DNA of 64,000 bases. It comes from Gaiellales bacterium. GTDB taxonomy: Bacteria > Actinomycetota > Thermoleophilia > Gaiellales > F1-60-MAGs149. The DNA is taken from assembly GCA_038911065.1 (NCBI GenBank), contig JBCKBR010000003.1, forward strand, positions 2,547-66,546, in the 5' to 3' direction. The notes under the pieces were generated by a model. The model ran no database searches. It worked only from the letters and a program-made list of their open reading frames with translations, and was not told where the DNA came from. The translations under genes and the position numbers were made by a program. Below, one piece after another: positions 1-63,208 of this stretch (positions are counted from its first letter, which is position 1; every line of letters starts with the position of its first letter).

Positions 1-569
1 CAGACAGCGTCGAGCAGTTGGCCGCGACTATAGACGCGTCCCGGGCTCTGCATGAGCGTGGCTAGGATCTCAAATTCGACGTAGGTCAGGTCGACGGCGG
101 CATCGTCGACGGTGACGCTGTGACGCGTTCGGTCGAGGACCACGCCGGCGAGTTCGAGGCGCTCCTCCGCTGTTTCGCTGTCAGGGCCGGGAGCTGTCAT
201 GGCGGCGCGGCGCAGAACCGCCCGGACGCGTGAGCGCAACTCGCGCATCCCGAACGGCTTCGTGATGTAGTCGTCGGCTCCGAGTTCGAGCCCCACGACT
301 TTGTCGACTTCGTCATCGAGCGCCGTCAGCATGATGATCGGAACGGTCGAGGTGGCACGGATTATTTTGCAGACCTCGTGGCCCGACTGGTCGGGGAGCA
401 TCACGTCGAGCAGGATCGCGTCCGGCTGCTGATCGGCGAAGGCGGCGAGTCCGGCAGCGGCGGTTCCCGCCACGATCGTGCGGTAGCCGTCGCGTTCCAG
501 TGCGTGCGTCAGCAACTCCTGTAGCGACTCCTCGTCATCGATAATCAATACGACTGGTGGGTTCGGCAC
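1..569 (-). CDS. OmpR/PhoB-family response regulator (3' end runs off the window)
   Basis: My own minus-strand translation from GTG at 569: MPNPPVVLIIDDDEESLQELL...DAILLDVMLPDQSGHEVC...PIIMLTALDDEVDKVVGLELGADDYITKPFGMRELRSRV, followed by the start of a winged-helix domain (VDLTYVEFEILATLMQSPGRVYSRGQLL). Receiver acidic pocket, phospho-Asp and conserved Lys are present. Absent from the ORF track because it is open at the window edge. Confidence 0.85.
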   Translation of the reverse strand, partial: MPNPPVVLIIDDEESLQELLTHALERDGYRTIVAGTAAAGLAAFADQQPDAILLDVMLPDQSGHEVCKIIRATSTVPIIMLTALDDEVDKVVGLELGADDYITKPFGMRELRSRVRAVLRRAAMTAPGPDSETAEERLELAGVVLDRTRHSVTVDDAAVDLTYVEFEILATLMQSPGRVYSRGQLLDAV

Positions 570-2257
570 AGTCGAATGCTACCGTCAGGAGGCCTGTGGT
601 TGACCAGATTGGTACTGTGCATGCGGTTCGAGGTGCCCGAGAACGAGCCGGGCGAGCATTGCGTATTGCGTTTATCGTGCCGCCGTTGTTGGCTCTGGTT
701 GTCTTGCTGGTCAGTGTGCGGACGCCGGTTGGACCGTCCGCGGCGCTGACCGTTGCTCCGAGTTTTGATGGTCCACGCGCCGCGGCGTATGCGCGTCGGC
801 TCGCCGAGCTCTCGCCGGATCGTTCGCCGGGCACGCTGACGGCGAAGCAGGCTGCGGATCACGTGGCTGGTTCGCTGGGCGAGGCGAGTGGCGAGACGGT
901 GCACCGCGCGCAGTTCACCGCGCCGGGTGCTGCGGGTAGCGATGTGACGATGGAGAATCTCTGGGTGGTGGAGCAGGGAGCGTCGAGTGAGGCAATTGTC
1001 GTGGTGGCAAATCGTGACGATGTGTCACCGGGTCCTGGCCTCAACGACAACGGCACGGGAACGGCTGCGCTGGTGGAGCTCGCCAAGGATCTGGCGGGCG
1101 TGGAGCGCTCACGCTCGCTGGTGATTGCTTCGACGGATGGGGGCACGGTTGGTCAGGCGGGCAACATCCAACTGCTGCGTGATCTCCGCAATGAGGGGAT
1201 TCGTCCAGTTGCTGTGGTGTCGCTGAATGCGATTGGAGCAGCCGATCAGACGCTTCCGATTCGTTTTGCTGGGACGGGTGGCGTGCGCACGCCCGCGTTG
1301 TTGTTGAAGGGTCTTGAAGAAGCGTTTGCGGGCCAGCCAGGAGCGGGTTTTGCGGCACCTGAGAGTCCCGTGTTGCAGATTCTCGATCTGATTGCACCCG
1401 TTACGCCAGCAGGAGCGCAGGTGCCGTTTCTCGATGCGGGTGTCGCGGCAATCCAGCTTGGTGATGGTGATGGCGGTGTCGGTGTTGCGGCGATTGACGA
1501 GCGGCGTTTGGGCGCGGTGGGTGCTTCGATCGGCACGCTGCTGGTACGACTTGATGCCGAGCCGCGACCGTCGCCACCGAGCGGCGCCTATATCGCAGTC
1601 TCGGGACGGGTGATCCCGGGTCAGGCGATTGCGCTGCTGGCGATTGCGCTGCTGGTTGGCCCGCTGTTCGTCGCGGTGCGACGCCTGATGGTTGGGCGTC
1701 CATCCCGTACTGGTTGGGCTGCCGCGCTGATGATGGCTGCTGTTGGCACATTCCCCGGCATTGCGACGGTGCTGATCGCTCGCGCGACGCAGCTGGCGGG
1801 TGCTATCGATACGCCGCCTGGGTCGGAGTGGCCGCGTGCTGGCACGCTGGCGGTGGTGCTCGTGCTGGCTGCTGCTTCGCTGGCGGTGTTGGCGGCGGGG
1901 TACTTGGTGATTCGTCGGCTGCAGGCGCCGATGCCGCTGGTCGCATCGCTGATCATTGGGTTGACCGGAGCGGTGCTGTTGTTGGCAGGTAGCGCAGCAG
2001 CGGTCCTGATCGCCGTTCCGGCGCTCTGGCTGTGGACGCTGATGCCACGCCCCGAGCAGGTAGTGTCGCGCGTCGCTTGGAGTTTTGGACCCGTCGCCGC
2101 AATGGGCTTGTTGATCTTTTTGTTGCGTGGGGCAGACCTCGCTTCGTTGATTGGCGCGGTCGGTACGGGGGCGCTCCCTGCAGCACTCGTTGTTGGTAGT
2201 TCTGTACTGGTGGGTGCGGGTGTGGTTGGGGTGTTTGCCGAAACGAGCGAGCGTTAG
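557..2257 (+). CDS. Membrane-anchored M28-family zinc peptidase-domain protein
   Basis: 566-aa ORF. M28 block VVVANRDDVSPGPGLNDNGTGTAALVELAKDL. N-terminal TM helix and a multi-TM C-terminal half. A start at 557 would overlap the divergent regulator start at 569, so the true start is probably downstream (for example the in-frame GTG at 617). Confidence 0.7.
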   Translation: MGSAQSNATVRRPVVDQIGTVHAVRGARERAGRALRIAFIVPPLLALVVLLVSVRTPVGPSAALTVAPSFDGPRAAAYARRLAELSPDRSPGTLTAKQAADHVAGSLGEASGETVHRAQFTAPGAAGSDVTMENLWVVEQGASSEAIVVVANRDDVSPGPGLNDNGTGTAALVELAKDLAGVERSRSLVIASTDGGTVGQAGNIQLLRDLRNEGIRPVAVVSLNAIGAADQTLPIRFAGTGGVRTPALLLKGLEEAFAGQPGAGFAAPESPVLQILDLIAPVTPAGAQVPFLDAGVAAIQLGDGDGGVGVAAIDERRLGAVGASIGTLLVRLDAEPRPSPPSGAYIAVSGRVIPGQAIALLAIALLVGPLFVAVRRLMVGRPSRTGWAAALMMAAVGTFPGIATVLIARATQLAGAIDTPPGSEWPRAGTLAVVLVLAAASLAVLAAGYLVIRRLQAPMPLVASLIIGLTGAVLLLAGSAAAVLIAVPALWLWTLMPRPEQVVSRVAWSFGPVAAMGLLIFLLRGADLASLIGAVGTGALPAALVVGSSVLVGAGVVGVFAETSER

Positions 2258-2261
2258 GTTT

Positions 2262-2322
2262 TGTGATGGGGTTATGACTGGACAAAGGGGTCTGACCCCT
2301 TTGTCCAGTCATAACCCCATCA
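2262..2322. repeat. Perfect palindrome (30-nt arms, 1-nt centre) between convergent genes; probable bidirectional terminator or repeat element (family D)
   Basis: GTGATGGGGTTATGACTGGACAAAGGGGTC-T-GACCCCTTTGTCCAGTCATAACCCCATCAC read directly. The arms are exact reverse complements. It lies between stop 2257 (+) and stop 2344 (-). Confidence 0.85.
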
Positions 2323-2343
2323 CGAACCACCGCCACCGGCAAA

Positions 2344-3747
2344 CTAGTCCGCCAGTGGGTGCGTCATGTCGGCGGGGACGACCCACTCCGCGTACTGCTC
2401 GGGCGTCACCAACTCGAGTGCGGTGGCCGCTTCGATCAGCGTGGTGCCGTCCTGATGCGCCTTCTTTGCGATCTTGGCGGAATTCTCGTAGCCAATGTGC
2501 GTGTTGAGTGCCGTGACCAGCATCAGCGACGCCTCGAGATTACGCGTGATCGTCTCCATGTTCGGCTCGATGCCGATCGCGCAGCGCTTGGTGAAGGAGC
2601 GCGACGCCTCGGCCATCAGCTCGGCCGATTCGATCACGTTGTGCACCATGATCGGCTTGTAGACGTTCAGCTGATAGTCACCTTGGGTGCCGGCGAAGGC
2701 GACGGCCGCGTCGAAGCCGAAGACTTGGACGCAGACCATGGTCAGCGCCTCACACTGCGTCGGGTTGACCTTGCCCGGCATAATCGACGAGCCCGGCTCG
2801 TTCTCGGGGATCGAGATCTCGCCGATGCCGGCGCGGGGGCCCGAGGCTAGGCGACGGACATCATTCGCCATTTTCATCAGCGCGCCTGCGAGGGTGCGGA
2901 GTGCCGCACTGACGTTGACGAGCGCGTCGTGTGATGCGAGTGCGGCGAACTTGTTCTCGGCCGAGACGAACGCGTAGCCCGTTTCTTCGGCCATGTACTT
3001 GGCGGCGAGGTCACCAAACTTTGGATGCGCGTTGAGGCCGGTGCCGACAGCAGTGCCGCCGATCGCGAGCTCGAGCATGCCCTCGATCGAGTGTTTGACG
3101 TTGGCGAGGGCGGCGTCGATCTGCGCAACCCATGCCGAGATCTCCTGTCCGAGCGTGATCGGTGTCGCGTCCTGGAGGTGCGTGCGTCCGATCTTGACGA
3201 CGTCGGCGTAGGCCTTTGCCTTCTGGTCGAGACAGTCGCGCAGTTCGCTGATGGCGGGCACGAGCACCTTGTCGAGGACTTCGACCGCAGCGATGTGCAT
3301 TGCCGTCGGGAACGTATCGTTCGACGACTGGCCGCGGTTGACGTGGTCATTCGGATGGACGGGCGTCTTCGAACCGAGCACGCCGCCAGCCATCTCGATC
3401 GCGCGGTTCGAAATCACCTCATTGATGTTCATGTTCGACTGCGTGCCAGAACCGGTCTGGAAAATCACGAGCGGAAACTCGTCATCCCATTTGCCGCTAA
3501 TCACTTCGTCAGCGGCCTTGATGATCAGGTCGGCGACGTCGTCGGGGATCTGGCCGAGGTCGCGATTGGCGCGGGCAGCGGATTTCTTGAGCACGCCAAG
3601 CGCGCGGATCACGGGGCGATCCCATTGGTACTGCCCGACGCCGATCGGGAAGTTTTCGATCGAGCGCTCGGTCTGCGCTCCCCAATAGCGGTCAGCGGGG
3701 ACCTTGACCTCACCCATGCTGTCCGTCTCGATTCGATACTCCGTCAT
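2344..3747 (-). CDS. fumC: Fumarate hydratase, class II
   Basis: 467 aa. Fumarate lyase signature [16 protein letters not shown]. The N-terminus [29 protein letters not shown] is typical of FumC. Confidence 0.95.
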
Positions 3748-3800
3748 GGCCTGCCTTTGTCGTCTGGGGTCAGTATTGGCACCGTAGCGCGATGTGCGCT

Positions 3801-3889
3801 ATTTCGTGATGGGGGGCGGATGCCACAACCGCGCGGTTGTGGGGTCCGCCCATCCGCGCGGTTGTGGCATCCGCCCCCCACCACGAAAT
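3801..3889. repeat. Family A palindromic intergenic element, compact copy
   Basis: 36-nt arms (3801-3836 and 3854-3889) are complementary at 35 of 36 positions around a 17-nt centre. Core GGCGGATGCCACAACCGCGCGGTTGTGG. Located 3' of moeA and 5' of fumC. Confidence 0.85.
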
Positions 3890-7866: not shown

Positions 7867-9404
7867 ACGGGCCGAAGGATCTGCGCGACTGGATTGCGCA
7901 ACTGCGCAGTGCGGGTGAGCTCGTTGAGATTCGTGATGAGGTCGATCCGTACCTCGAGATTACGGAGATCGCCGACCGTACCCTCAAGGGCGGTGGGCCG
8001 GCGCTGCTCTTCAGCAATGTAAAAGGCTCTCAGCAGGCTCTCTTGATCAACCAGTTCGGCACGGAGCGACGCATGCTGATGGCGCTTGGTGTTGACTCGC
8101 TCGATGCGATTGGTGCGCAGATCGGAGAGCTCCTCGAATTGCGGGCGCCGGATGGTTTGAAAGATAAGCTTCAGGCGCTTGGGCGACTCAAGTCGATTGC
8201 GGATGCGCGGCCAAAAATCGTCAAGAAGGCTGTCTGTCAAGAGGTCATCTGGCCCGAGCCCAACCTCGACCTGCTGCCGATCCAATATCAGTGGCCTGAC
8301 GATGGTGGGCCCTTTATTACGCTCGCCAACGTGATTACCAAAGACCCAGTCACGGGTGGTCGCAACGTTGGCATGTATCGACTCCAGAAGCACGCCAAGG
8401 ACGAGCTCGGACTGCACTGGCAGATGCACAAGGATGCGGCGGCCGATGCGCGTGATGGCGAAGGGCGGATGGAAGTCGCGCTGGCACTTGGTACCGATCC
8501 GATTACGACCTATTCCGGATCGATGCCACTCCCCAAGCACATTGACGAGTACATGGTTGCGGGGTGGTTGCGCGACGAGCCGATCGAACTCGTCCAGTGC
8601 AAAACCGTTGACTTGCAGGTCCCCGCTAACGCCGAAATCATCATCGAGGGCTATTGCATCCGCGGCGAGACGAAGCCTGAGGGCCCCTTCGGCGACCATA
8701 CCGGGTACTACACGCCGGTTGACGATTTCCCCGTCATGCACATCACGGCAATGACATCGCGACGCGATCCGATCTATCCGTCGATCGTTGTCGGTCCCCC
8801 GCCGTGCGAGGATCTCTGGCTCGCGAAAGCAACGGAGCGCATCTTCTTGCCGGCCGTGCGCGTCACGCTCCCCGAGGTCGTCGACTACGACCTGCCATTC
8901 GCGGGTACCTTTCATAATTGCGCGATTTTTTCGATCAAAAAGCGCTTTCCGGGCCACGCACAGAAGGTCATGCACGCAATTTGGGGGACAGGATTGTTGT
9001 CGTTGACGAAGGCGGTAATCATCGTTGATGAGTGGGTAAATGTGCACGACTACAACGAGGTCGTCTGGCAGATGGGCGCCAACATCGATCCGGGCCACGA
9101 CATTCTGCTCTCGTATGGGCCACTCGATCAGCTCGACCACGCAGCCCGCCTCAAGGCACTCGGGGGCAAGATCGGCTTCGATGCGACCGCCAAACTCGAG
9201 GGTGAGGGCTATACCCGCGGGCCGTGGCCCGAGGTCAACCGGATCCCCGACGATGTCAAGGCGCAGGTCGACGCGCGCTGGGCCGAACTCGGCATACCGT
9301 TGCCCGGGTTTAGTGGCGCGTTTCGACAGAGCGGGGCGGCAGCGTCCGGTAGTGGCGAGGGTATGCTGGCGAAGTTGCGTGGTGCGAAAGGCCAGCCGGG
9401 GTAA
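7863..9404 (+). CDS. ubiD: UbiD-family prenylated-FMN-dependent decarboxylase (menaquinone/ubiquinone biosynthesis type)
   Basis: 513 aa. UbiD N-terminus [45 protein letters not shown] and [10 protein letters not shown]. Full-length similarity pattern to 3-polyprenyl-4-hydroxybenzoate decarboxylases. Confidence 0.9.
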
Positions 9405-9895: not shown

Positions 9896-10516
9896 GTGGC
9901 TGATCAAGGTTCTGAGCGCGCGGGCGCCTCGTCGTATAGCGACGTCAATGATCCCCGAACTGTGATTAGTCGCAGCAAGTTTCTGACGGGCGCGACCGTC
10001 GGCCTCGGTGGTCTGATCGGTGTTGCGATTGCCGTTCCGGTCGTCGGCTTCATGCTCGGCCCCTCATTCCTGGGGGAGGACTGGTACTGGACGAGTTTCG
10101 GACCGGTCGATAATAAGGACTTCAAAGAGGGTACGTACGAGCCCGTCATCTTCGAGCGTGGCAAGCTCGGCGAGTTGGATCGTCGGGTCGCCTACGTGCG
10201 CCGTGACGGCGCCGAGAAGTTCACGATCATCTCAAACGTGTGCATGCATCTCGGCTGTCCTGTGCAATTCATGGCCACGAACTTTGCCTGCCCGTGCCAT
10301 GGTGGTCAGTACGACGCGGAAGGCATCGTTACCGCGGGCCCACCTGTGCGCCCCCTAAACCGTTTCGAGTACAAAGTCGAAGGCGGGAATCTGCTCGTTG
10401 GACGCCCCTTTGCGACAGAAGACGTCGACGGCAAAATCGTCATGACTGATACCTTCAAGCTACCTGGTCAGCCCGTTGGTGGGCTCCTCGGTTGGCTCTA
10501 CCCCGCACCCGGCTGA
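9896..10516 (+). CDS. qcrA: Rieske 2Fe-2S subunit of menaquinol-cytochrome c reductase
   Basis: 206 aa. Rieske boxes CMHLGCPV and CPCHGGQYD. N-terminal TM helix. GGAGGGA lies upstream of GTG 9896. Confidence 0.85.
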   Translation: MADQGSERAGASSYSDVNDPRTVISRSKFLTGATVGLGGLIGVAIAVPVVGFMLGPSFLGEDWYWTSFGPVDNKDFKEGTYEPVIFERGKLGELDRRVAYVRRDGAEKFTIISNVCMHLGCPVQFMATNFACPCHGGQYDAEGIVTAGPPVRPLNRFEYKVEGGNLLVGRPFATEDVDGKIVMTDTFKLPGQPVGGLLGWLYPAPG

Positions 10517-15696: not shown

Positions 15697-16484
15697 CTCC
15701 TCTGCGCGTCGGTCGCGTTGACTTCATCAACACATTTCCACTCGCCTGGTCGCTCCAGCACCGACTCGAGTCGGGCGCGATTACCGAGACCCTCGCCTCG
15801 CCAACGCAACTCAACGCGCTGCTCCTGGCGGGCGACCTCGATGTCGCTAACGTCTCGAGCATCGCCTACGCGCTCGATCCGGAGCAGTACGTCCTGCTGC
15901 CGTCCGTCTGCATCGCATCGCAGGGCGCTGTCGATTCGGTTCAGCTCGTCACGGATGTGCCACTGCCGGCCATGCGGTCGATCTCTGTCACCAGCCAAAG
16001 CGCAGCCTCCGTGGCGCTCGTGCGCGTGCTCTTTCCCTCCGCCGAGATTCGGGCCGAAGGCATACCGGCCGACGCAAAGCTGTTGATTGGCGACGACGCA
16101 CTGCATTCGATGATCAACGACGCAACGCCGCATCACGACCTTGGCGAGCTCTGGTTCGAGCGCACGGGACTACCGATGGTGTTCGCCGTCTGGGCTGCTC
16201 AGCGCACGATCGATCCTGCGCGCCTAGTCGCGCTCGACCATGCCTTTGCATCCGCTGTGGCAGATGCCTCCGAGCATGCGGCGCTGATCGCGCAGGCCGC
16301 CGCGGAGCGCTATGGCTTCCCGGCCGGATTCCTCGCTCGCTACTTCGAGAAGCTGCGCTACCCGTTTGGTGAACAGGAGCGCGCGGGATTGCTGCGATAC
16401 TTCGAACTGGCCGCAGCGGCGGGCATCGTCGATTCGGCACCCGAGTTGGTATTTGCGGGAGCCACGCAAGGAGTGCAGGGCTAG
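15684..16484 (+). CDS. mqnA: Chorismate dehydratase (futalosine pathway MqnA)
   Basis: 266 aa. The LRVGRVDFINTFPL N-terminus is typical of MqnA. An alternative start, GTG 15693, overlaps the upstream stop (GTGA). Confidence 0.85.
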   Translation: MGLVTPLRVGRVDFINTFPLAWSLQHRLESGAITETLASPTQLNALLLAGDLDVANVSSIAYALDPEQYVLLPSVCIASQGAVDSVQLVTDVPLPAMRSISVTSQSAASVALVRVLFPSAEIRAEGIPADAKLLIGDDALHSMINDATPHHDLGELWFERTGLPMVFAVWAAQRTIDPARLVALDHAFASAVADASEHAALIAQAAAERYGFPAGFLARYFEKLRYPFGEQERAGLLRYFELAAAAGIVDSAPELVFAGATQGVQG

Positions 16485-17587
16485 TGGCCGTCATCGATTC
16501 GACTCGCACCGTCACCGAGATTTTGGCTCGCGTGCTGGATGGGGAGCGGCTCTGCGATGCAGACGCGCTGACGTTGATGCAGTCGAAGGATCTCGTCTCG
16601 ATCGGCGCTGCAGCTAATGAGATCCGCAACCGCAAGGCGAATCCCGGCGAGATTACCTTCATCGTCGATCGCAATATCAACTATACGAATATCTGCGTGA
16701 CGGATTGCCATTTCTGCGCGTTCTACCGCAAGCCTGGCGACACGCGCGAGGGCTACACGCTGCCGAAGCCGATTATTTTCGGCAAGATCAGAGAGACAAT
16801 CGCGGTTGGTGGCACGGGCGCCTTGATGCAGGGTGGGCATAACCCCGAGCTCGACATCGAGTGGTACGAGGACATCTTCTCGTCGATCAAGGAGCGCTAC
16901 CCCGCGTTTCATCTGCACGCGTTGTCGCCACCCGAGATTATGTACATCTCGCGTCGCTCCAGTCTGCCGATCGCTACCGTGCTTTCGCGCCTGCGGGATG
17001 CGGGCCTCGACACGCTGCCAGGCGGTGGTGGTGAGATCCTCGTTGATCGCGTTCGCAAGATCATCTCTCCCAAGAAGACCAAGAGCGATGAGTGGCTCGA
17101 GGTCATGCGCCAGGCGCATCGTCAAGGCATGTCGACATCGGCAACGATGATGTACGGGCACGTCGAGACGCTCACAGAACGTGTCGAGCACATGCGCCGC
17201 CTGCGCGATCTACAGGACGAGGTGCCGGGCTTCCGGGCCTTTATCTCGTGGACGTTCCAGCCCGACAACACGATACTCGGCAAGACCATCAACGAGACGC
17301 CAACATCATTTGAGTACCTGTTGGTGCAGGCCATCTCGCGTCTCTACCTCGACAATATTCCGCACATCCAGTCGTCGTGGGTGACGCAGGGGATGAAGAT
17401 CGGCCAGGTCGCCTTGCACTTTGGTGCGGATGATCTCGGCTCGGTGATGCTCGAGGAGAATGTCGTTTCGGCTGCTGGCGTGACACACCGCGCATCGAGT
17501 GAGGATTTCTGTCGCGTGATCCGCAACGCGGGCTACAAACCGATCCAGCGCGACACGTACTACCGCGTCGTCAACGACGACCTGTAG
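16484..17587 (+). CDS. mqnC: Radical-SAM menaquinone (futalosine pathway) enzyme, best guess cyclic dehypoxanthinyl futalosine synthase
   Basis: 367 aa. FIVDRNINYTNICVTDCHFCAFYRKPGD, HLHALSPPEI, FRAFISWTFQ. Start overlaps the mqnA stop (TAGTG). Confidence 0.6.
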   Translation: MAVIDSTRTVTEILARVLDGERLCDADALTLMQSKDLVSIGAAANEIRNRKANPGEITFIVDRNINYTNICVTDCHFCAFYRKPGDTREGYTLPKPIIFGKIRETIAVGGTGALMQGGHNPELDIEWYEDIFSSIKERYPAFHLHALSPPEIMYISRRSSLPIATVLSRLRDAGLDTLPGGGGEILVDRVRKIISPKKTKSDEWLEVMRQAHRQGMSTSATMMYGHVETLTERVEHMRRLRDLQDEVPGFRAFISWTFQPDNTILGKTINETPTSFEYLLVQAISRLYLDNIPHIQSSWVTQGMKIGQVALHFGADDLGSVMLEENVVSAAGVTHRASSEDFCRVIRNAGYKPIQRDTYYRVVNDDL

Positions 17588-17588
17588 T

Positions 17589-17789
17589 GAGCAAAGGGGT
17601 CTGGCTCGGTTTCGTGAGGGGGGCGGACCCCACAACCGCGGGGTTTTGATGTCCGCCCCCCATACTCAACCACGCTCGACAGACGGTTTTAGGGGGCGGA
17701 CATCACAACCCCGCGGTTGTGGCGTCCGCCCAACCCCGCGGATGTGGCGTCCGCCCCCCCTCACGAAACCGAACCAGACCCCTTTGCTC
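17589..17789. repeat. Family A palindromic element, largest nested copy
   Basis: Outer arms GAGCAAAGGGGTCTGGCTCGGTTTCGTGAGGGGGGCGGA and its complement at the right end differ by one substitution and one G-run length difference. Inside are family A hairpin units and the conserved loop CAACCACGCTCGACAGACGGTTT. Confidence 0.85.
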
Positions 17790-18213
17790 AGTTAGCCACA
17801 CGCAGGTCCCCACTACGCCGTAGCAAGCGCAACCGGTGTGCGATCGCTAAGGCGAGGACGCCGAGGCCGACGAGTCCAAGAATTGGTTGGATTGGAGCAA
17901 ACCACGTCAGCGCGCCTGACGCACCGATCGCCAGCACGACCAACTGGTTGCAGGTCGGGCAGCCCACGGCAAGAAAGGTGAGACCCGACCCGACGATCCC
18001 GCTGCGTGTCGCCGGTCGGCAACTCGATGGTCTCGGGATCGCCACGAGGATGCCGACGAGGATGGCTGAGGCAATCGCGACCGGCCAATCCCACCACGTA
18101 ATTGGTGTCATCCGCGAGAAAAGCGGATTCGCAATCAGAGACGTTGGGATCGAGATCGCGAGTAGGGCGAAGACCGCAACCCCAATACCGATACCAAGCT
18201 GGCGAGCATGCAT
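17788..18213 (-). CDS. Hypothetical integral membrane protein with intramembrane CPTC motif
   Basis: 141 aa with about 4 predicted TM helices. GCPTCNQLVV lies within a hydrophobic stretch. Starts 3 nt after the rnd stop on the same strand. Confidence 0.55.
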   Translation of the reverse strand: MHARQLGIGIGVAVFALLAISIPTSLIANPLFSRMTPITWWDWPVAIASAILVGILVAIPRPSSCRPATRSGIVGSGLTFLAVGCPTCNQLVVLAIGASGALTWFAPIQPILGLVGLGVLALAIAHRLRLLRRSGDLRVAN

Positions 18214-21662: not shown

Positions 21663-21694
21663 CGGACATGATGGGCCCGGGCCCATCATGTCCG
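21663..21694. repeat. Family B palindromic repeat (copy 1)
   Basis: CGGACATGATGGGCCCGGGCCCATCATGTCCG is a perfect 32-nt palindrome. The same core occurs at 43903-43940, and a degenerate copy at 44085-44118. Confidence 0.85.
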
Positions 21695-21729
21695 CGGCTG
21701 CGGGGAACGCAGGGGAATCGCCGGGCACC

Positions 21730-23632: not shown

Positions 23633-24583
23633 GTGGATACCAAGCAACTTACCGCCCTCGTCGCTGTTGTGGATCGCTCCAGCTTCTCGCAGGCCGCCGA
23701 ACAACTTGGCGTGACACAACCCGCAGTGTCGCTGGCAATTCGCTCGCTCGAGAAACGCCTCGGCTGCCAGTTGATTGATCGTTCTGGTCGTGTCGTAGAG
23801 CCGACCGAGGCCGGGCAGGTGGCGTATCGCCACGCGCAGCGCGTGCTCGCTGCAGAGCGCGATCTTTTTCGAAGTCTCGAGGATGAGGGGGACGACCTCT
23901 CGGGCCATCTGATCGTTGGCGCTTCGACGGGTCCAGGCGAACGTGTTTTGCCTGCACTGCTCGGTGCCTTTCATCGCGAGAATCCAGAAGTGGTCGTGTC
24001 GCTGCGCGTTGATGACACGGAGACAATCGTGGATCGCGTACTTGATCGCCAGTTAGAGTTCGGCATTGTTGGCGCCGAGCGGACACATCGCTCGCTCGTT
24101 TTCGAGCCGTTTCTTCGTGACGAAGTCGTGCTCGTCGTGCCGGTCGATCACCCGTTCGCGGGGAAACAGATCACGATGGATGATCTACTCCGCGAACCCC
24201 TCGTCGTCCAGCAGGAGGGCGCCGGGGTCCGCACCGTCATCGAACGCGAACTACGTGCCCAAGGGGTGCGTATCCGCGATCTCAACATTGTCGCCGAACT
24301 CGGATTGCAAGAATCGGCGAAATCGGCTGTTGAGGCGGGGCTGGGGATCACGTTTCTCTCGAGGCTTGCTGTGGAGCGCGAACTTGATCAGGGATGGCTC
24401 GCATCCGCGACGGTCGAGGGTCTCGCGGCTGGGCGCCTGTTCTACTCCGTCCGCAGTGCCGCCCGGACACCGAGCCGGTTGGTGGCATCGTTTGTTGCCT
24501 TCTCGCGACTCTCGCTGGGCGAGCGTGCGGTCTTTCCGGATGAGGTGCGCGAGCGCCCGATCCGCGGCGGTCGTGTCGGCTAG
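23633..24583 (+). CDS. LysR-family transcriptional regulator
   Basis: 316 aa. HTH LTALVAVVDRSSFSQAAEQLGVTQPAVSLAIRSLEKRLG and a LysR substrate-binding domain. GTG start lies 3 nt after the dehydratase stop. Confidence 0.9.
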   Translation: MDTKQLTALVAVVDRSSFSQAAEQLGVTQPAVSLAIRSLEKRLGCQLIDRSGRVVEPTEAGQVAYRHAQRVLAAERDLFRSLEDEGDDLSGHLIVGASTGPGERVLPALLGAFHRENPEVVVSLRVDDTETIVDRVLDRQLEFGIVGAERTHRSLVFEPFLRDEVVLVVPVDHPFAGKQITMDDLLREPLVVQQEGAGVRTVIERELRAQGVRIRDLNIVAELGLQESAKSAVEAGLGITFLSRLAVERELDQGWLASATVEGLAAGRLFYSVRSAARTPSRLVASFVAFSRLSLGERAVFPDEVRERPIRGGRVG

Positions 24584-24590
24584 CAAGGAC

Positions 24591-24720
24591 TTCGTGATGG
24601 GGGGCGGACGCCACAACCCCGCGGATGTGAGGTCCGCCCCCACGCACAACCACGCTCGGCAGACGGTTTGGGGGCGGATCTCACATCCGCGGGGTTGTGG
24701 CGTCCGCCCCCCATCACGAA
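24591..24720. repeat. Family A palindromic element, archetype copy
   Basis: 51-nt arms (24591-24641 and 24670-24720) are complementary at 50 of 51 positions. The 28-nt loop contains CAACCACGCTCGGCAGACGGTTT. Confidence 0.9.
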
Positions 24721-24771
24721 ATCCTCGCCAGTCGCGCCTCACGCTTTCGCCTGCCGCTACCCTCTCCAGCA

Positions 24772-37017: not shown

Positions 37018-37055
37018 GAACTGCACAAAAGGACCCGGGTCCTTTTGTGCAGTTC
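37018..37055. repeat. Family C palindromic repeat (copy 1), probable bidirectional terminator
   Basis: GAACTGCACAAAAGGACCCGGGTCCTTTTGTGCAGTTC is a perfect palindrome between convergent ychF and leuD. A near-identical copy lies at 63169-63208. Confidence 0.85.
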
Positions 37056-40954: not shown

Positions 40955-41068
40955 GGGCGGACCCCACATCCGCGGGGTTGTGATGTCCGCCCCCCGACAC
41001 CACCTTTACAACGGTTGTGGCCTCCGTGGGGGGCGGACATCACAACCCCGCGGATGTGGCGTCCGCCC
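40955..41068. repeat. Family A palindromic element (copy with a different loop)
   Basis: 41-nt arms (40955-40995 and 41028-41068) are complementary at 40 of 41 positions. 32-nt loop GACACCACCTTTACAACGGTTGTGGCCTCCGT. Confidence 0.85.
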
Positions 41069-43902: not shown

Positions 43903-43940
43903 GGCCGGACATGATGGGCCCGGGCCCATCATGTCCGGCC
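43903..43940. repeat. Family B palindromic repeat (copy 2)
   Basis: GGCCGGACATGATGGGCCCGGGCCCATCATGTCCGGCC is a perfect 38-nt palindrome, 17 nt after the MFS stop. Confidence 0.85.
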
Positions 43941-44084
43941 TTAACAGGTGCGTTGGGTCGTAGCATCCGCGCGCGGACGCACAGCTTGCGCGCATGCGCA
44001 GCGTGCGCAGCAAGATTTGCGCGCCGCGCGTGCGGGGCATGCGGAGTACGTGTCAGAGCGCGCGGATGTTGGCACGAAAAGTGG

Positions 44085-44118
44085 GCGGACATGGTGGGCC
44101 CGGGCCCATAAAGTCCGC
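44085..44118. repeat. Family B palindromic repeat (copy 3, degenerate)
   Basis: GCGGACATGGTGGGCCCGGGCCCATAAAGTCCGC has the same GGGCCCGGGCCC core, with arm mismatches. Confidence 0.7.
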
Positions 44119-44153
44119 AGCGGCTCGCAGCGAGCTTTGATTTCCACAACAGG

Positions 44154-55110: not shown

Positions 55111-56031
55111 ATGCCAGGCGCGATGATCGCGGTGCTCTGGGGTGCCTCGTTTGCCGTGGGCATCTGCTGGCAGTGGCGCTCGCCGCAGACTGCCGCACTG
55201 TGGAACAAGCGGATCTTCTACTTCTACTTTCACTTGCTGGCTCCGGTTGTTGTGCTCTTTGCCTACACGGTGGTGCCTGCCAATCGTGCGACGCTGATGG
55301 GGCTTGCTGCGGTGATTGTTGCGTCGTACGCCGTCCTTGGTATTGGCTTGCTCTATGCCCGCAAGGCTGGTCGCACGCGTGGTGAGCAGGGCGTGCTCGC
55401 CCTCGGCAGTGGCTTTACCAACACGGTCACGCTTGGCTATCCCGTGATCAGCGCGGTGTTTGGTCCCGCCGGGCTGGCACTGCAAGTGCTGTTTGGGCAG
55501 TTTATGTACCTGATCCCAATCGTCTCGATCTCGACCACGATTGCCGCGCACTTTGGTAATGGTTCGAGGCCGCGAACCTGGCTCGGCATCTTGCGCCAGA
55601 TCATCAATGTGCCGCTGATTTTCGCGGCGATTGCCATCACCATTCGGGCCCTCGGGTTCGACCTCGCTCCGTACGTGACGGAGCCGTCAAATTGGGTCGT
55701 CTTTGCGATGGGCCCGATCGGGTTCCTCGAGCTTGGTCTGGCACTTCCGCTCAACCGGCCCTCGCACGATTTTGGGGATCTGTGGCGCGCGGCCGGACCG
55801 ATTCTGATTCGTCTCTCGATCGCGCCGGCCATGCTCTATCTGGTCGATCTGGCGATGGGTGCTGACGTCCCGCAGGTCTACTACCTCGCGATCATGATGC
55901 CCGCCGCATTCCACACGCTGATTCTCGCCCGCGTCTATGACCTGCCCGGGCAGATGATGCGGCTGATTGTCGTGATGTCGACGGTGATCATGATTGCCGG
56001 CATCGTGGTCGGTCTTGCGTTCTACGGGTAG
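55111..56031 (+). CDS. AEC-family (auxin efflux carrier-like) membrane transporter
   Basis: 306 aa with about 10 TM helices. GSGFTNTVTLGYPV resembles the AEC motif. Family-level call only. Confidence 0.6.
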   Translation: MPGAMIAVLWGASFAVGICWQWRSPQTAALWNKRIFYFYFHLLAPVVVLFAYTVVPANRATLMGLAAVIVASYAVLGIGLLYARKAGRTRGEQGVLALGSGFTNTVTLGYPVISAVFGPAGLALQVLFGQFMYLIPIVSISTTIAAHFGNGSRPRTWLGILRQIINVPLIFAAIAITIRALGFDLAPYVTEPSNWVVFAMGPIGFLELGLALPLNRPSHDFGDLWRAAGPILIRLSIAPAMLYLVDLAMGADVPQVYYLAIMMPAAFHTLILARVYDLPGQMMRLIVVMSTVIMIAGIVVGLAFYG

Positions 56032-56060
56032 GACGCCACAACCGCGCGGATGTGGCGTCC
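56031..56060. repeat. Family A solo hairpin unit, probable terminator between convergent genes
   Basis: GGACGCCACAACCGCGCGGATGTGGCGTCC is palindromic except for one A/A position. It starts at the last base of the AEC stop codon. Confidence 0.75.
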
Positions 56061-56079
56061 GCCTTCCTGCGGATCAGCG

Positions 56080-58497: not shown

Positions 58498-61400
58498 ATG
58501 CTCGAAGCCGGCAATACGGCTACAGGCAAAGAGTTTGTAGATTTGATGGGTCACCTGCCGCTACCTGACGTGGAGCGGTGGATTGGCGAGAGTATTCTGG
58601 CGCCCGATGATACCGGTGGAATTCGCGCGGGCACGCTCTGGGCGAGCGCGTATCTCGATGCCGTCGAGGAGATGGAGCGAGGACTCGCTAGCCCATCGCC
58701 GGAGTATCGCCGCCGCTACGCCCTGCCACTTGGCCTCCAGCGCATGCTGGCCGTGGACGAGCCGCACCTGCAGTCGGGGCTGGCGTTGCGGCCACACCAG
58801 GTCGATGCGCTTGCGGGCATGCTTGCGGCGGTGATCGGCGACTTCGAACGGTCCGACCAAGACGAGCCGGAGATCGCAGATGAAAGCGCGCCGCGACTCG
58901 CCGACGAGAGCACGGCCGTGGTTGGTGATTCTGCCGACGATGACGACGATGACGAGTTCGACGATGACGACGATGACGCGCTGCCACCGATCGTCGACGA
59001 GCCGGTCGCCCGCGTGGCGCTTGCCGGCACCGACGACGATGATGGCGATGACGATGACGGTGAAGACGATGACGACGGCACCAGTGACGAGCCGATCGAT
59101 GACCCGGGCGCAGTACGCCGCTACCGCTTCAAACACCCGACTGCATCGGGCAAGACCGTCGCCGCTGCGGCGTTCGTGGATGCTGCGCGCATCACGGGCG
59201 TTCTGATCCTCACCCATCGCCGTCTGCTGGTCGACCAGTTCGAGCGTGATCTCAAGGAGCAGGGCTACGCCCATCGGATCAAGGACCCCGTGTTGGGTGT
59301 TGCCAAGGCGCCGCTGGTGCCGCCGATCACGATCGAGACGTACGCGTGGTTTATCAAGAATGCGGATCGCCTTAGTCGCGATGTCTACGGCGTGATCCTC
59401 TGTGACGAAGCCCATACCGCGTTGGGTGAGCGCACGTCGGCGGCGATCCGACGCCTCGATACGCCGACCTACATCGGCATGACGGCGACGGATCAACTGC
59501 TGCAGAAGCATGTTGGCGATGTCTTCCCCGCGGAGATCGCGGACTTTCCGCTTGACGAAGCCGTGCTCAGTGGTGTCGTCGCCCCGCTCCGCGCCGTGCG
59601 TGTGCCCCCAGGGGCATCGCTCAAGCGCGTGCGTCTCGTGGGTGGCGATTACGATCAGGCCGAGCTCGCAAACGTACTCGACCACGACGCCGTCAACATG
59701 GCGGCTTCGCTCTATTACCTCGACATGTTTGGTCAGCGGCCGGGCATCGTCTATGCCGCCGGTGTCGACCACGCCATCCGTGTCGCTGCGGCGATGCGCG
59801 CCGTGGGGTTGAAGGCCGCCGCAGTCTCTGGGCGCACGCGGCCGCGCGAGCTGGCCGAGACGCTCGCCGCCTACGAGCGTGGCGAGGTCAACGTGCTCGT
59901 CAATGCGCAGTTGCTTGCAGAGGGGTGGAACGCGCCGCGCGCGACCGTTTGCATGCATCTCGCTCCGACCGCGAGTCGCCGCGTCTATCAGCAGCGCGTT
60001 GGGCGTGTCATGCGCCTACATCGACGCAAGGAGTCGGGTGTCGTTGTCGACTTCGCCGAGGCCGCCGCCCCGCATACCGATCGCACCATCACGCTGCACT
60101 CGCTGCTCGACGTCGATACATTCCAGCCGGGCGCGCTCGTCACGCCCCGACCGCCACGCGTGCGTCGCCGCTGGCGTCGTCTACCGAAGGCACTCGTGCG
60201 CGAGGCTCCGTGGGTCGTGCCCGTCACGCCCGATCCCGCACGCCGCGCGCAGGTGATTCGCGACAACTGGAAGACCGTCGCCGTCGATCGTCTGCCACTC
60301 GACGAGCAAGAGTTGTGGGCCGAGCATGCGGCTGAGCGTGCGCAGCCCAAGGATCTTGAGAAGCTCGCGCGCGTGCTTGTGGCGGTGCCGCGCGAGGCGC
60401 GGATGCGCTTCTTCGCCAAGTGCGCCGCCGAGAATCGCCATCGTCAGCTGCGCCTCGAGGCGCTACGTGATCTTGCGCAGAGCGGACCGGGCACGAATCT
60501 GTTTGAGCAGGCCGTACGGCTCGTGGAGCGCGCGCCGACGTGGCGACAGGATCGTCAGCAGGGGGCACGCACGCTGCTGCTCGCGCTCGGCGATGGCTTT
60601 GGTGAGGCCTCGGACCATTACGTCAGCGCGTGGGCGTGGCGTCTGGCTGCTACGTCGCACGATGCCCAGCAGCGACGGGTAATCATGGGCATTGAGGGTG
60701 GCCGCGAGCTCGTGCGGAGCCTATCGGGCCGCTCGAATGGCGAGGCGCGTCAACAGGCCAAGGTGATCGTCGCTATCGCTGAGGAGCAACCGCTCGATGT
60801 TGGCGCAGCGCTGCTTAGCTGCGTGCGCACGTCCGAGCTGGGCGCGGAGCGTGAGCTTGAGGATGCGCGCATCCGCCTGTCGGTCGAGCCGCGTGCGCTG
60901 GCTGCAGCGCTCGGCGCAAACGTGCCGTTGCCGCGGGGTGTCAAGCGACCGCCGCGTTCGCGCGTGTCAGCGGCGGCGTTGCAGGGGTCGGTGCTGCCAT
61001 CTTCGATCGGTGCCTTACCCAACGAGGCGGCGCACGAGGAGCCGAAGAAGCGTCGCCGGCGTCGTAAACGTAAGCGCAATGGCGACGCGGTTGTTGGCGA
61101 TCCGACGCTCGCGACGATCGGCGCGGTTGGTGGCGCGATCGTTGCGGGTGATGACGAGGCGATTGTGGTGGCGACAGTGGCTGCTCCCGACCCACACGCC
61201 AATGGCGAAGCGCCCTCTGGTGAGGCTCCTGTGATGCCAAAGCGTGGTCGCCCACGCAAGCTCAAGGTTGTCGACAGGTCTGACATCGAACCAGTACCGA
61301 GTCTGGCTCCAGCGATCGTCGACGAGCCGGTAGAGAAACCAAAGCGAGGTCGGCCCCGTAAGGTCAGGCCGGTCACCGACGAGTCCGCTGTCGAGCCTCA

Positions 61401-61611
61401 GCCAGAGCCCACGCCTGTCGTTGAGTTCGCCGCCGATGGTCGACGCAGAGTGGTCATCGATGACGAGACGGGAGGCGCCTCGTTCTCGTCGGATGGTATG
61501 TCAACGAAGCGTCCGCGTGGGCGCCCACGCAAGACGACGCCGAAGCGGTCGACTCCGCCGCTGCGTGAGACCCCAACGGCGGTTGATAACGGTGAGATCC
61601 CCGAGTGGTAG
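58498..61611 (+). CDS. Superfamily-2 DEAH helicase (ResIII-like) with poly-Asp insertion and C-terminal AT-hook repeats
   Basis: 1037 aa. LRPHQVDAL, motif I PTASGKT, motif II ILCDEAH, motif III GMTAT, motif VI QRVGRVMR. Acidic insert DDDDDDEFDDDDDD...DDDDGDDDDGEDDDDG. Three GRP cores (KRGRPRK, KRGRPRK, PRGRPRK). Confidence 0.85.
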   Translation: MLEAGNTATGKEFVDLMGHLPLPDVERWIGESILAPDDTGGIRAGTLWASAYLDAVEEMERGLASPSPEYRRRYALPLGLQRMLAVDEPHLQSGLALRPHQVDALAGMLAAVIGDFERSDQDEPEIADESAPRLADESTAVVGDSADDDDDDEFDDDDDDALPPIVDEPVARVALAGTDDDDGDDDDGEDDDDGTSDEPIDDPGAVRRYRFKHPTASGKTVAAAAFVDAARITGVLILTHRRLLVDQFERDLKEQGYAHRIKDPVLGVAKAPLVPPITIETYAWFIKNADRLSRDVYGVILCDEAHTALGERTSAAIRRLDTPTYIGMTATDQLLQKHVGDVFPAEIADFPLDEAVLSGVVAPLRAVRVPPGASLKRVRLVGGDYDQAELANVLDHDAVNMAASLYYLDMFGQRPGIVYAAGVDHAIRVAAAMRAVGLKAAAVSGRTRPRELAETLAAYERGEVNVLVNAQLLAEGWNAPRATVCMHLAPTASRRVYQQRVGRVMRLHRRKESGVVVDFAEAAAPHTDRTITLHSLLDVDTFQPGALVTPRPPRVRRRWRRLPKALVREAPWVVPVTPDPARRAQVIRDNWKTVAVDRLPLDEQELWAEHAAERAQPKDLEKLARVLVAVPREARMRFFAKCAAENRHRQLRLEALRDLAQSGPGTNLFEQAVRLVERAPTWRQDRQQGARTLLLALGDGFGEASDHYVSAWAWRLAATSHDAQQRRVIMGIEGGRELVRSLSGRSNGEARQQAKVIVAIAEEQPLDVGAALLSCVRTSELGAERELEDARIRLSVEPRALAAALGANVPLPRGVKRPPRSRVSAAALQGSVLPSSIGALPNEAAHEEPKKRRRRRKRKRNGDAVVGDPTLATIGAVGGAIVAGDDEAIVVATVAAPDPHANGEAPSGEAPVMPKRGRPRKLKVVDRSDIEPVPSLAPAIVDEPVEKPKRGRPRKVRPVTDESAVEPQPEPTPVVEFAADGRRRVVIDDETGGASFSSDGMSTKRPRGRPRKTTPKRSTPPLRETPTAVDNGEIPEW

Positions 61612-63168: not shown

Positions 63169-63208
63169 GAAACTGCACAAAAGGACCCGGGTCCTTTTGT
63201 GCAGTTTC
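63169..63208. repeat. Family C palindromic repeat (copy 2)
   Basis: GAAACTGCACAAAAGGACCCGGGTCCTTTTGTGCAGTTTC is a perfect palindrome. Its 36-nt core AACTGCACAAAAGGACCCGGGTCCTTTTGTGCAGTT is identical to 37019-37054. Confidence 0.85.

Follow-up and report, generated by a model that had tools for sequence, protein, structure and literature searches.

We analyzed a 64-kb stretch of contig JBCKBR010000003.1 (64,000 nt; hereafter the window, to which all positions without a locus name refer) from an uncultured, Gaiellales-related actinobacterium of the Thermoleophilia. At 17.6 kb, mqnC and a convergent open reading frame (ORF) for a 141-aa hydrophobic protein face each other across a nested palindrome. 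The mqnC TAG stop codon (17585–17587) lies one base ahead of the palindrome; a first-pass annotation of this DNA had the adjacency right and the gap at 2 nt. The stop codon of the ORF (TCA on the plus strand, 17788–17790) falls within the last bases of the right arm, as that annotation had read it, and a family search with the 141-aa ORF gave no match. We interpret the 17.6-kb region as a REPIN (REP doublet forming a hairpin) of a system that pairs repetitive extragenic palindromes (REPs) with a REP-associated tyrosine transposase (RAYT), placed at the tip of a palindromic repeat, K, that predates it, and give this reading a probability of about 0.8. The REPIN and the K palindrome together occupy the entire convergent intergenic gap from mqnC to the small membrane-protein gene.

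Structure of the 17.6-kb palindrome

The segment from 17588 to 17790 is a near-perfect nested palindrome. An inverted-repeat search returned outer arms of 36 nt (17588–17623 and 17755–17790, 97% complementary) and inner arms of 40 nt (17621–17660 and 17692–17731, 95% complementary, 31 nt apart). Comparison of the outer arms revealed the one C/T substitution (GGCTCGG versus GGTTCGG) and the unequal run (6 G versus 7 C) listed in the first-pass annotation. The 221-nt region 17580–17800 folds into a single long hairpin, which is strong both as RNA (−164.3 kcal/mol, shuffled sequences −84.0 ± 4.4, z = −18.2) and as DNA (−97.3 kcal/mol, z = −18.1).

The repeated unit within this palindrome, denoted family A, is 38 nt long (GGGCGGAY-NN-CACAWCC-NNNN-GGWTGTG-NN-RTCCGCCC) and forms an imperfect hairpin. 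A 2x2 internal loop separates its outer stem of 8 bp from an inner stem of 7 bp, which contains a single A·A or T·T mismatch and is capped by a tetraloop (GCGG, CCGC or GCGC). Two such units (17621–17658 and 17694–17731) are inverted around a 35-nt spacer, and the long hairpin that they form together is the minimum-free-energy structure, as in a REPIN; a truncated third unit brings the copy to 2.5 units. The loop core CAACCACGCTCGACAGACGGTTT (17667–17689) recurs at 24647–24669 with 22 of 23 positions identical and a single A/G difference, where shuffled sequences lead one to expect 0.00 occurrences. The first-pass annotation had reported the same identity one base downstream (24648–24670).

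The window contains five family-A loci (Table 1), all of which (5/5) are intergenic and adjoin a stop codon. The neighboring genes are convergent at three loci and tandem at two, and one of the tandem-gene loci is only ~40 nt upstream of a start codon. The TAG stop of the gene ending at 56031 arises within a degenerate REP unit (GGTAGGAC). In 386 kb of related contigs we counted ~80 clusters of these modules, so that the unit is a short, repeated, extragenic palindrome, that is, a REP.

Table 1. Features of the 17.6-kb locus and other palindromic elements of the window
Feature	Position	Strand	Remarks
mqnC (cyclic dehypoxanthinyl futalosine synthase)	16484–17587	+	TIGR03699, 486 bits (cut-off 428)
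Outermost left arm, K module (GAGCAAAGGGGTC)	17589–17601		left half of second palindromic repeat family
Left linker S (TGGCTCGG; family form TCAGGCTCG)	17602–17609		GGGGTCAGGCTCGATTTCGTGATGGGG at many loci; from module grammar
Left M1 module (TTTCGTGAGGGG)	17610–17621		foot beside nearly all family-A elements
Inner-left REP unit (GGGCGGAC CC CACAACC GCGG GGTTTTG AT GTCCGCCC)	17621–17658		38-nt imperfect hairpin
Spacer/loop (core CAACCACGCTCGACAGACGGTTT, 17667–17689)	17659–17693	+	AACC/GGTT pair; ~13 nt unpaired
Inner-right REP unit	17694–17731		36/38 positions equal the reverse complement of the inner-left unit
Truncated outer REP half (AACCCCGCGGATGTGGCGTCCGCCC; AACCCCGCGGATGTGGCGTCCGCC(C))	17732–17756		left partner missing at 17.6 kb
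Right M1 module (CCCCTCACGAAA)	17757–17768		M1 motif search
Right linker S' (CCGAACCA)	17769–17776		arm comparison; module grammar
Outermost right arm, K module (GACCCCTTTGCTC)	17777–17789		overlaps the convergent gene's stop codon, 17788–17790
ORF for 141-aa hydrophobic protein, convergent	17788–18213	-	syntenic in L077 and L078
Standalone palindrome, M1 - TTATGA - CTGGACAAAGGGGTC / GACCCCTTTGTCCAG - TCATAA - M1'	2260–2326		67 nt; 33-nt arms, 97% complementary; no family-A insert
Collapsed copy, 1.5 units between M1 feet	3801–3889		ortholog in L059 (95% identical) is a full doublet with loop
Second copy, beta subfamily: M1 - unit - loop (core 24647–24669) - unit - M1	24577–24734	+	66-nt arms, 92% complementary; between tandem plus-strand genes
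Third doublet, type-2 spacer (…CACCACCTTTACAACGGTTGTGGCCTCCGTG…)	40955–41068		between convergent genes
Single degenerate REP unit	56027–56064		upstream gene's stop codon (56029–56031) inside unit

Copies in related genomes and metagenomes

The window aligns to three loci (loci in other sequences bear L numbers) of Gaiellales or Thermoleophilia metagenome-assembled genomes (MAGs) at ~79% identity, with gene order kept across the mqn cluster, and the homologs of its MqnC include entries named "Thermoleophilia bacterium" and "Gaiellales bacterium". A search of GTDB representative genomes with the unit pattern returned true members, most of them doublets, in no genomes other than Gaiellales/Thermoleophilia MAGs. 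Two sets of labels in these searches deserve comment. L015 and L019 carry the public label 'MAG: Bifidobacterium breve isolate MaH-09apr19-181' (CAMAWJ01…); L019 is syntenic with and 76–79% identical to the mqn region of the window, and the label is probably wrong, as the content resembles Gaiellales MAGs. Four Verrucomicrobiota-labelled loci (L001, L007, L016, L022) have in common a near-identical stretch of ~130 nt that matches the unit pattern by chance and belongs to another repeat or mobile element, unrelated to family A.

The exact loop core was found in 42 stretches of Joint Genome Institute (JGI) metagenome contigs, or ~44 distinct sites after merging orthologs. Every match sits between two inverted family-A units, and the outer flanks of the sites are unrelated to one another. 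One of these contigs (L059) is 95% identical to positions 1–3851 of the window, which indicates that the metagenome contigs come from populations close to the source of the window. The loop core is 99% conserved among these loci, a figure inflated by their selection through an exact loop match; the copies free of that bias are the window itself and the by-catch elements at the same loci, whose loops carry 1–5 mismatches.

A second, discrete spacer type, AAGGCACCACCGATGCAACGGTTGTGGCCTCCGTG, is that of the doublet at 40955–41068 and was also found at L042 714, L048 9294, L059 9309 and L045 10009. In the Gaiellales relatives the spacers are variable. Neither the loop nor the unit pattern was found in viral contigs, which lends no support to a phage origin.

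Individual copies show further arrangements. At L041 (~10361–10424) an insertion sequence (IS) of the DDE type (transposase C-terminus …TPIEFEQAHYATLNREPQPV*) is inserted in the left unit of a REPIN and replaces the left half of the element. On the reverse strand of L053 (16–130), four tandem 23-nt modules ATTTCGTGATGGGGTCAGGYTCG run into a family-A unit, so the M1-plus-linker module (M1 is described below) can form short tandem arrays.

The doublet is copied as a unit

The first-pass annotation had proposed that the whole arm-loop-arm structure is copied as a module, a proposal that would fail if other copies showed no loop conservation. The recurrence of the loop between inverted family-A units at ~40 sites, together with the covariation of the arms, bears the proposal out. 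The REPIN concept, which the annotation did not name, already describes such copying in the literature (PMC3116915).

The left and right units of one element are complementary at 97.6% of positions (median 100%), compared to 90% for units of different elements. In an alignment of 35 distinct elements the consensus long hairpin contains 43 pairs, 10 of which have changed on both sides and almost none of which are broken (for example, GC 19 / CG 16; UA 18 / AU 16; UA 18 / GC 16); as the copies are related by descent, these counts reflect few events. The variable positions are exactly those left unpaired in the fold of the single unit, and the stems are invariant. Compensatory changes of this kind are also common in published REPIN work.

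Arms, loop flanks and feet occur in three characteristic combinations, which define the subfamilies alpha (with the 17.6-kb copy), beta (with the 24.6-kb copy) and gamma. The arms of the subfamilies differ at 4–6 positions and the loop core is common to all three. A rare TTTTG variant in the 17.6-kb copy is also present in copies at L042, L049, L061 and L070. The covariation of the arms and the association of arm, spacer and foot within subfamilies are the pattern of elements that replicate as doublets and not as singlets.

Unit tips occur in both orientations (L048 versus L075; alpha versus beta), and in L071 the loop is flipped relative to the arms. Every shell is a perfect mirror image, including the segments that vary between sites. 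Mirror-perfect shells with flipped tips and a flipped loop imply some process that homogenizes arms or copies by folding back.

A RAYT-type gene in close relatives

A candidate transposase gene was found outside the window, in relatives. At L048 10688–11407 (and at the same locus in L067) an ORF encodes a 239-aa protein and is flanked on each side by a four-unit family-A array. The protein matches Pfam Y1_Tnp (26.5 bits, cut-off 23), the NCBIfam model NF047646 "REP-associated tyrosine transposase" (E = 3e-17, 62.7 bits) and the Escherichia coli TnpA-REP structure (PDB 4ER8, E = 7e-6); in the last of these alignments the HxH and Y-x-x-x-NPVK motifs line up. The short C-terminal tail of the protein, absent from the 165-aa E. 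coli TnpA-REP, gives weak HTH_23/GerE matches, which denote helix-turn-helix (HTH) folds. The homologs form a small family of ~240-aa proteins, one labelled Thermoleophilia and one labelled RayT by JGI.

A 92%-identical homolog in GCA_039743995.1 (L075 10001–10720) has family-A units on its flanks, and a 62%-identical homolog in a Thermoleophilia MAG (L076 2906–3682), upstream of pyrR-pyrB-pyrC-carAB, is flanked by a diverged REP, GGAGGACATGACAAACCCCGGTTTGTCATGTCCTCC. In the three genomes the gene keeps its position between a 283–306-aa ORF and pyrR. The flanking REPs are inverted in L076 (CCCCGG upstream, CCGGGG downstream), mixed in L075 and arranged as direct arrays in L048; RAYT-flanking REPs are inverted in the published description (Nunvar et al. 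2010). In the window and the 386 kb of related contigs we found one RAYT locus. A single syntenic gene whose REP diverges along with the RAYT is the published signature of REP-RAYT systems.

Outer modules and concentric nesting

The outer inverted repeat at 17.6 kb consists of two further repeated modules, M1 (TTTCGTGATGGGG) and K ((CTG)GACAAAGGGGTC / GRRCAAAGGGGTC). Both recur elsewhere, so the outer repeat is not a local duplication unique to this locus, which the first-pass annotation had named as the finding that would speak against its module proposal. M1 has 10 matches in the window (1.7 expected), with pairs at 2259/2315, 3802/3876, 17610/17756 and 24590/24709. It flanks almost every family-A element and also a different palindrome (2260–2326) that overlaps the end of a minus-strand ORF. 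K has matches at 2280, 2294, 17589 and 17777, and as a standalone hairpin (CTGGACAAAGGGGTC-W-GACCCCTTTGTCCAG) it is present at ~13 sites in the related contigs.

At 17.6 kb the REPIN, with its linker and M1 feet, stands exactly at the symmetry center, or apex, of a K hairpin. Written as modules the locus reads K S M A a O A a a m s k, and the order K, linker, M1, units, loop is also found at an unrelated site (L048 6413–6641). Across the module clusters, the arrangement seen most often is MAaOAam. The outer boundary of the palindrome depends on the site and may be M1, S or K. L075 has empty M1 hairpins (8729–8817) where L048 has a type-2 REPIN, and at a second orthologous pair L075 has a single unit within which L048 has an alpha REPIN nested. 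Because the inner and the outer palindromes are each found alone elsewhere, the most economical reading is nested insertion into hairpin tips, and we infer that the 17.6-kb locus was assembled in this way.

In many alpha copies (L039, L042, L047, L068, L069, L070), two truncated units of 25 nt form an additional outer layer with mirror symmetry. The "extra partial unit" that the first-pass annotation had placed at 17731–17754 is present at 17732–17756 and is the remnant of such a layer.

A broader generalization, which we regard as unlikely, is that these palindromic repeats grow as concentric shells, with a REPIN in a REP unit in an M1 hairpin in a K hairpin. RAYT integration would prefer the single-stranded tip of an extruded hairpin, hairpin-templated copying or repair would mirror changes from one arm to the other, and the 13-nt loop, which is nearly invariant, would not be a passenger but a working site for nicking or recognition, or for protein binding like that of IHF in the bacterial interspersed mosaic element BIME-1. 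Such growth would explain why the outer 12-nt segments are always perfect reverse complements and yet vary between sites. It would also account for the unit tips and the single loop found in flipped orientation, which recall the flip/flop isomers of rolling-hairpin replication. We also considered an IS608-like junction model, in which a 12-nt apex plus doublet inserts 3' of CAC in the REP unit. The site-variable 12-nt segments are always exact reverse complements, which rules this model out because independent donor and target junctions would not produce them.

Orthologous sites differ among close relatives

Orthologous sites differ by gain, loss or collapse of the interior in four comparisons (3.8 kb versus L059, L048 versus L075 at two sites, and 17.6 kb versus L077). 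In L077, whose MqnC is 98% identical to that of the window, the same locus keeps the K, S and M1 shells, and its interior consists of the left outer half and one unit, with no loop. The K arms of L077 and the window differ in a compensatory manner (GCAAAG/CTTTGC versus ACGAAG/CTTCGT), and the S mismatch is swapped between the arms. Both states could derive from an ancestor with both outer halves through different deletions between short direct repeats; an inversion of the interior is also possible.

The mqnC gap of the 90%-identical L078 holds an unrelated 84-nt spacer. In the 79%-identical Gaiellales MAGs the gap is occupied by a REP doublet of their own, whose spacer is different; there (L019 4085–4150; L002 1060–1000, reverse), mqnC runs 16 codons into the REP and the TGA stop lies inside GGTTGTGA. 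In an 87%-identity relative the contigs end 24–70 nt past mqnC in K-like repeats (L079 2605–2676 and L080; TTAGCGAWAGGGGTCTGG, twice). Such palindromes seem to interrupt short-read assembly, and the repeats explain contig breaks in MAGs of this Gaiellales-related group. Comparison of this gap in L077, L078, L079 and L080, the last two of which break off inside the repeat, recovered no K hairpin (…AAAGGGGTC-W-GACCCCTTT…) in its pristine state.

Genomic position and transcription signals

Of 35 scorable sites, 17 lie between convergent genes, 15 between tandem genes and 3 between divergent genes. Convergent positions are enriched (p = 0.002, 25% expected) and divergent positions depleted (p = 0.014). 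Some elements follow directly on the 3' end of a tRNA gene (L038/L056, L054) or a 5S rRNA gene (L040). In tandem contexts the orientation of the loop is not linked to the direction of transcription (9 versus 6, p = 0.6), which gives no support to a strand-specific loop RNA, with 15 sites too few to exclude one. Target-site duplications or direct repeats at the borders are absent at 38 of 39 sites.

At the 17.6-kb locus we found no promoter-like site and no U-tract. A terminator scan of 17300–18100 returned 0 sites, and the hairpin is followed by AGTTAGCC on the plus strand and CTACAGGT on the minus strand. A search of the whole window against Rfam gave 0 matches at the gathering score, and at an E-value threshold only generic long-hairpin (miRNA-precursor) models far below their cut-offs.

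Origin and role of the element

The unit, doublet, spacer and M1 feet recur together at ~40 unrelated sites, the arms co-vary, and in relatives of ~95% identity the same units flank a RAYT-type gene. These features match the published definitions of REPs and REPINs (PMC3116915, PMC2817692, PMC5581495). The RAYT would excise the element and re-integrate it as single-stranded DNA, as in the IS200/IS605 family, with the long palindrome folding into a hairpin while single-stranded. The exposed tips of existing palindromes may be favored landing sites, which would give rise to concentric shells, and copies would decay by deletion between short direct repeats, as suggested by the lost left outer half-unit at 17.6 kb and the lost loop in L077. 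In its primary role the element would then be selfish or commensal, non-autonomous and dependent on the RAYT for its movement.

E. coli REP hairpins at 3' ends protect the upstream mRNA and limit read-through. Here both convergent transcripts carry the ~90-bp hairpin at their 3' ends, where it probably has the secondary effect of blocking 3' exonucleases and read-through; positioned 1 nt past a stop codon, it may also impede terminating ribosomes. Lacking a U-tract, it is not a canonical intrinsic terminator.

Several observations weigh against the REPIN interpretation. No RAYT gene was found in the 64-kb window, and the link to a transposase is drawn from relatives at ~95% identity. The RAYT scores 62.7 bits, under the curated NCBIfam cut-off of 80 bits, and has the extra HTH-like tail at its C-terminus, and its flanking REPs in L048 are direct, not inverted as described for RAYTs. 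The spacer is conserved at least as well as the arms, though partly through the ascertainment bias of an exact-loop sample; published REPIN spacers are less conserved than their REPs. Among the orthologous sites compared there is no clean pair of a filled and an empty site, and all the polymorphisms could be deletions or rearrangements and not insertions.

Alternatively, the loop could be the functional part, either a protein-binding site, as for IHF in BIME-1 (RIB), or the apex of a small structured RNA, with the arms serving only to present it. The constancy of the loop core across three subfamilies of divergent arms, its 99% conservation in the sample and the BIME-1 analogy drawn by Nunvar et al. 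for REP doublets with an embedded sequence all fit this proposal. That sample was chosen by exact loop match, whereas the by-catch loops have 1–5 mismatches; an unrelated type-2 spacer serves equally well in otherwise identical doublets (for example, 40955–41068), and spacers are variable in the Gaiellales relatives. With a loop orientation independent of the direction of transcription and no Rfam match above noise, we consider a loop-centered function improbable.

Selection by the host for a bidirectional terminator or an mRNA-stabilizing hairpin, with the similarity among copies arising from stem selection instead of transposase copying, would account for the exact placement between convergent stop codons, the enrichment at 3' ends (17/35 convergent, 3/35 divergent), the copies directly downstream of tRNA and 5S rRNA genes (L038, L054, L040) and the very stable fold. 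Stem selection cannot explain loop, bulge and foot sequences that are unpaired and identical at ~40 sites, or a Y1 transposase gene flanked by the same family-A unit. The terminator scan was empty and there is no U-tract, and two window copies lie within tandem gene pairs, one of them ~40 nt before a start codon. We give this origin a slim chance; a terminator-like effect is plausible as a side effect of the element and not as its origin. The element is very improbably a miniature inverted-repeat transposable element (MITE), that is, a deletion derivative of a DDE-type IS moved by cut-and-paste through terminal inverted repeats: it is palindromic, short, multi-copy and intergenic, and the L041 copy abuts the end of such an IS, but target-site duplications are missing at 38/39 sites, its ends are not fixed (M1, S or K by site), its interior REP hairpins are identical to those flanking the Y1 transposase, and the L041 IS interrupts a unit and does not have termini in common with it.

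Comparison with known repeat systems

Under the REPIN interpretation, the closest systems are the REPIN-RAYT systems of Pseudomonas fluorescens SBW25 (GI-GIII) and E. coli (TnpA-REP/YafM, 4ER8). In common with them are short, imperfectly palindromic REPs at extragenic positions, inverted doublets whose spacer completes a long hairpin, compensatory arm changes, singlets that resemble decayed doublets, higher-order clusters, and the lack of target duplications. Likewise, a syntenic HUH transposase of the Y1 type, probably single-copy, is flanked by its own REP and co-diverges with it. The present system differs in its deep-branching actinobacterial host, in a ~240-aa RAYT with an HTH-like tail, in the M1 foot, in a spacer as conserved as the REPs and of two discrete types, in frequent concentric nesting, and in the direct four-unit arrays of L048.

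Almost all work on REPIN-RAYT systems, which are rare cases of vertically inherited and long-lived intragenomic replicators, concerns Proteobacteria, and the core REPIN/RAYT literature that we searched makes no mention of Actinobacteria. The type of element is already known, and that literature does not describe it in this lineage; a clear case in Thermoleophilia would widen the known host range. These genomes, in which three palindrome families nest within one another, two discrete spacer types occur and orthologous sites differ in state at 95–98% identity, hold an unusually legible record of nesting, symmetrizing and decay. The repeats supply or overlap the stop codons of several genes. They are therefore relevant to gene annotation, and may also bear on how the menaquinone (mqn) genes are expressed.

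The bacterial interspersed mosaic elements (BIMEs) of E. coli (BIME-1/RIB-RIP), in which inverted REPs surround an L motif with an IHF site, are similar in their mosaic of motifs, their conserved central segment and their location at the 3' ends of transcription units. There is no sequence relationship and no evidence of a loop-binding protein here, and the mosaic here is mirror-symmetric and concentric whereas that of BIMEs is linear. The IS200/IS605 family (for example, IS608 TnpA) has a related HUH/Tyr single-strand transposase, subterminal imperfect hairpins and no target duplication. In contrast to those multi-copy IS, the repeats here lack a transposase gene of their own, and the transposase gene is syntenic and probably single-copy.

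MITE-like repeats (Neisseria Correia/NEMIS, enterobacterial ERIC, pneumococcal BOX/RUP) are also short, multi-copy, intergenic, hairpin-forming and modular, and affect neighboring transcripts. They have defined terminal inverted repeats and, in Correia and RUP, DDE-linked target duplications, neither of which was found here. In Actinobacteria, palindromic terminator candidates lacking a U-tract ('I-shaped') are known, such as the TRIT motif of Mycobacterium tuberculosis, for which no associated transposase is described. The 17.6-kb element is likewise a GC-rich, conserved palindrome without a U-tract between convergent genes of a high-GC actinobacterium, and differs in the RAYT association found in relatives.

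Other repeats in the window

A third palindromic family, CGGACATGATGGGCCCGGGCCCATCATGTCCG, is present at 21663–21701, 43903–43944 and 44085–44124, the last two copies lying 180 nt apart at 43.9–44.1 kb; its motif also adjoins the family-A element in L039. Two identical 36-nt perfect palindromes, AACTGCACAAAAGGACCCGGGTCCTTTTGTGCAGTT, are located 26 kb apart (37019–37054 and 63171–63206) and may constitute a fourth repeat family; a related half, TTGCACAAAAGGACC, flanks the element in L033. Finally, GAC/GAT-rich repeats of 9 to 15 nt (GACGACGATGAC…) at 58933–59092 lie inside a long ORF (58498–61611) and imply an Asp-rich, low-complexity segment in its product.

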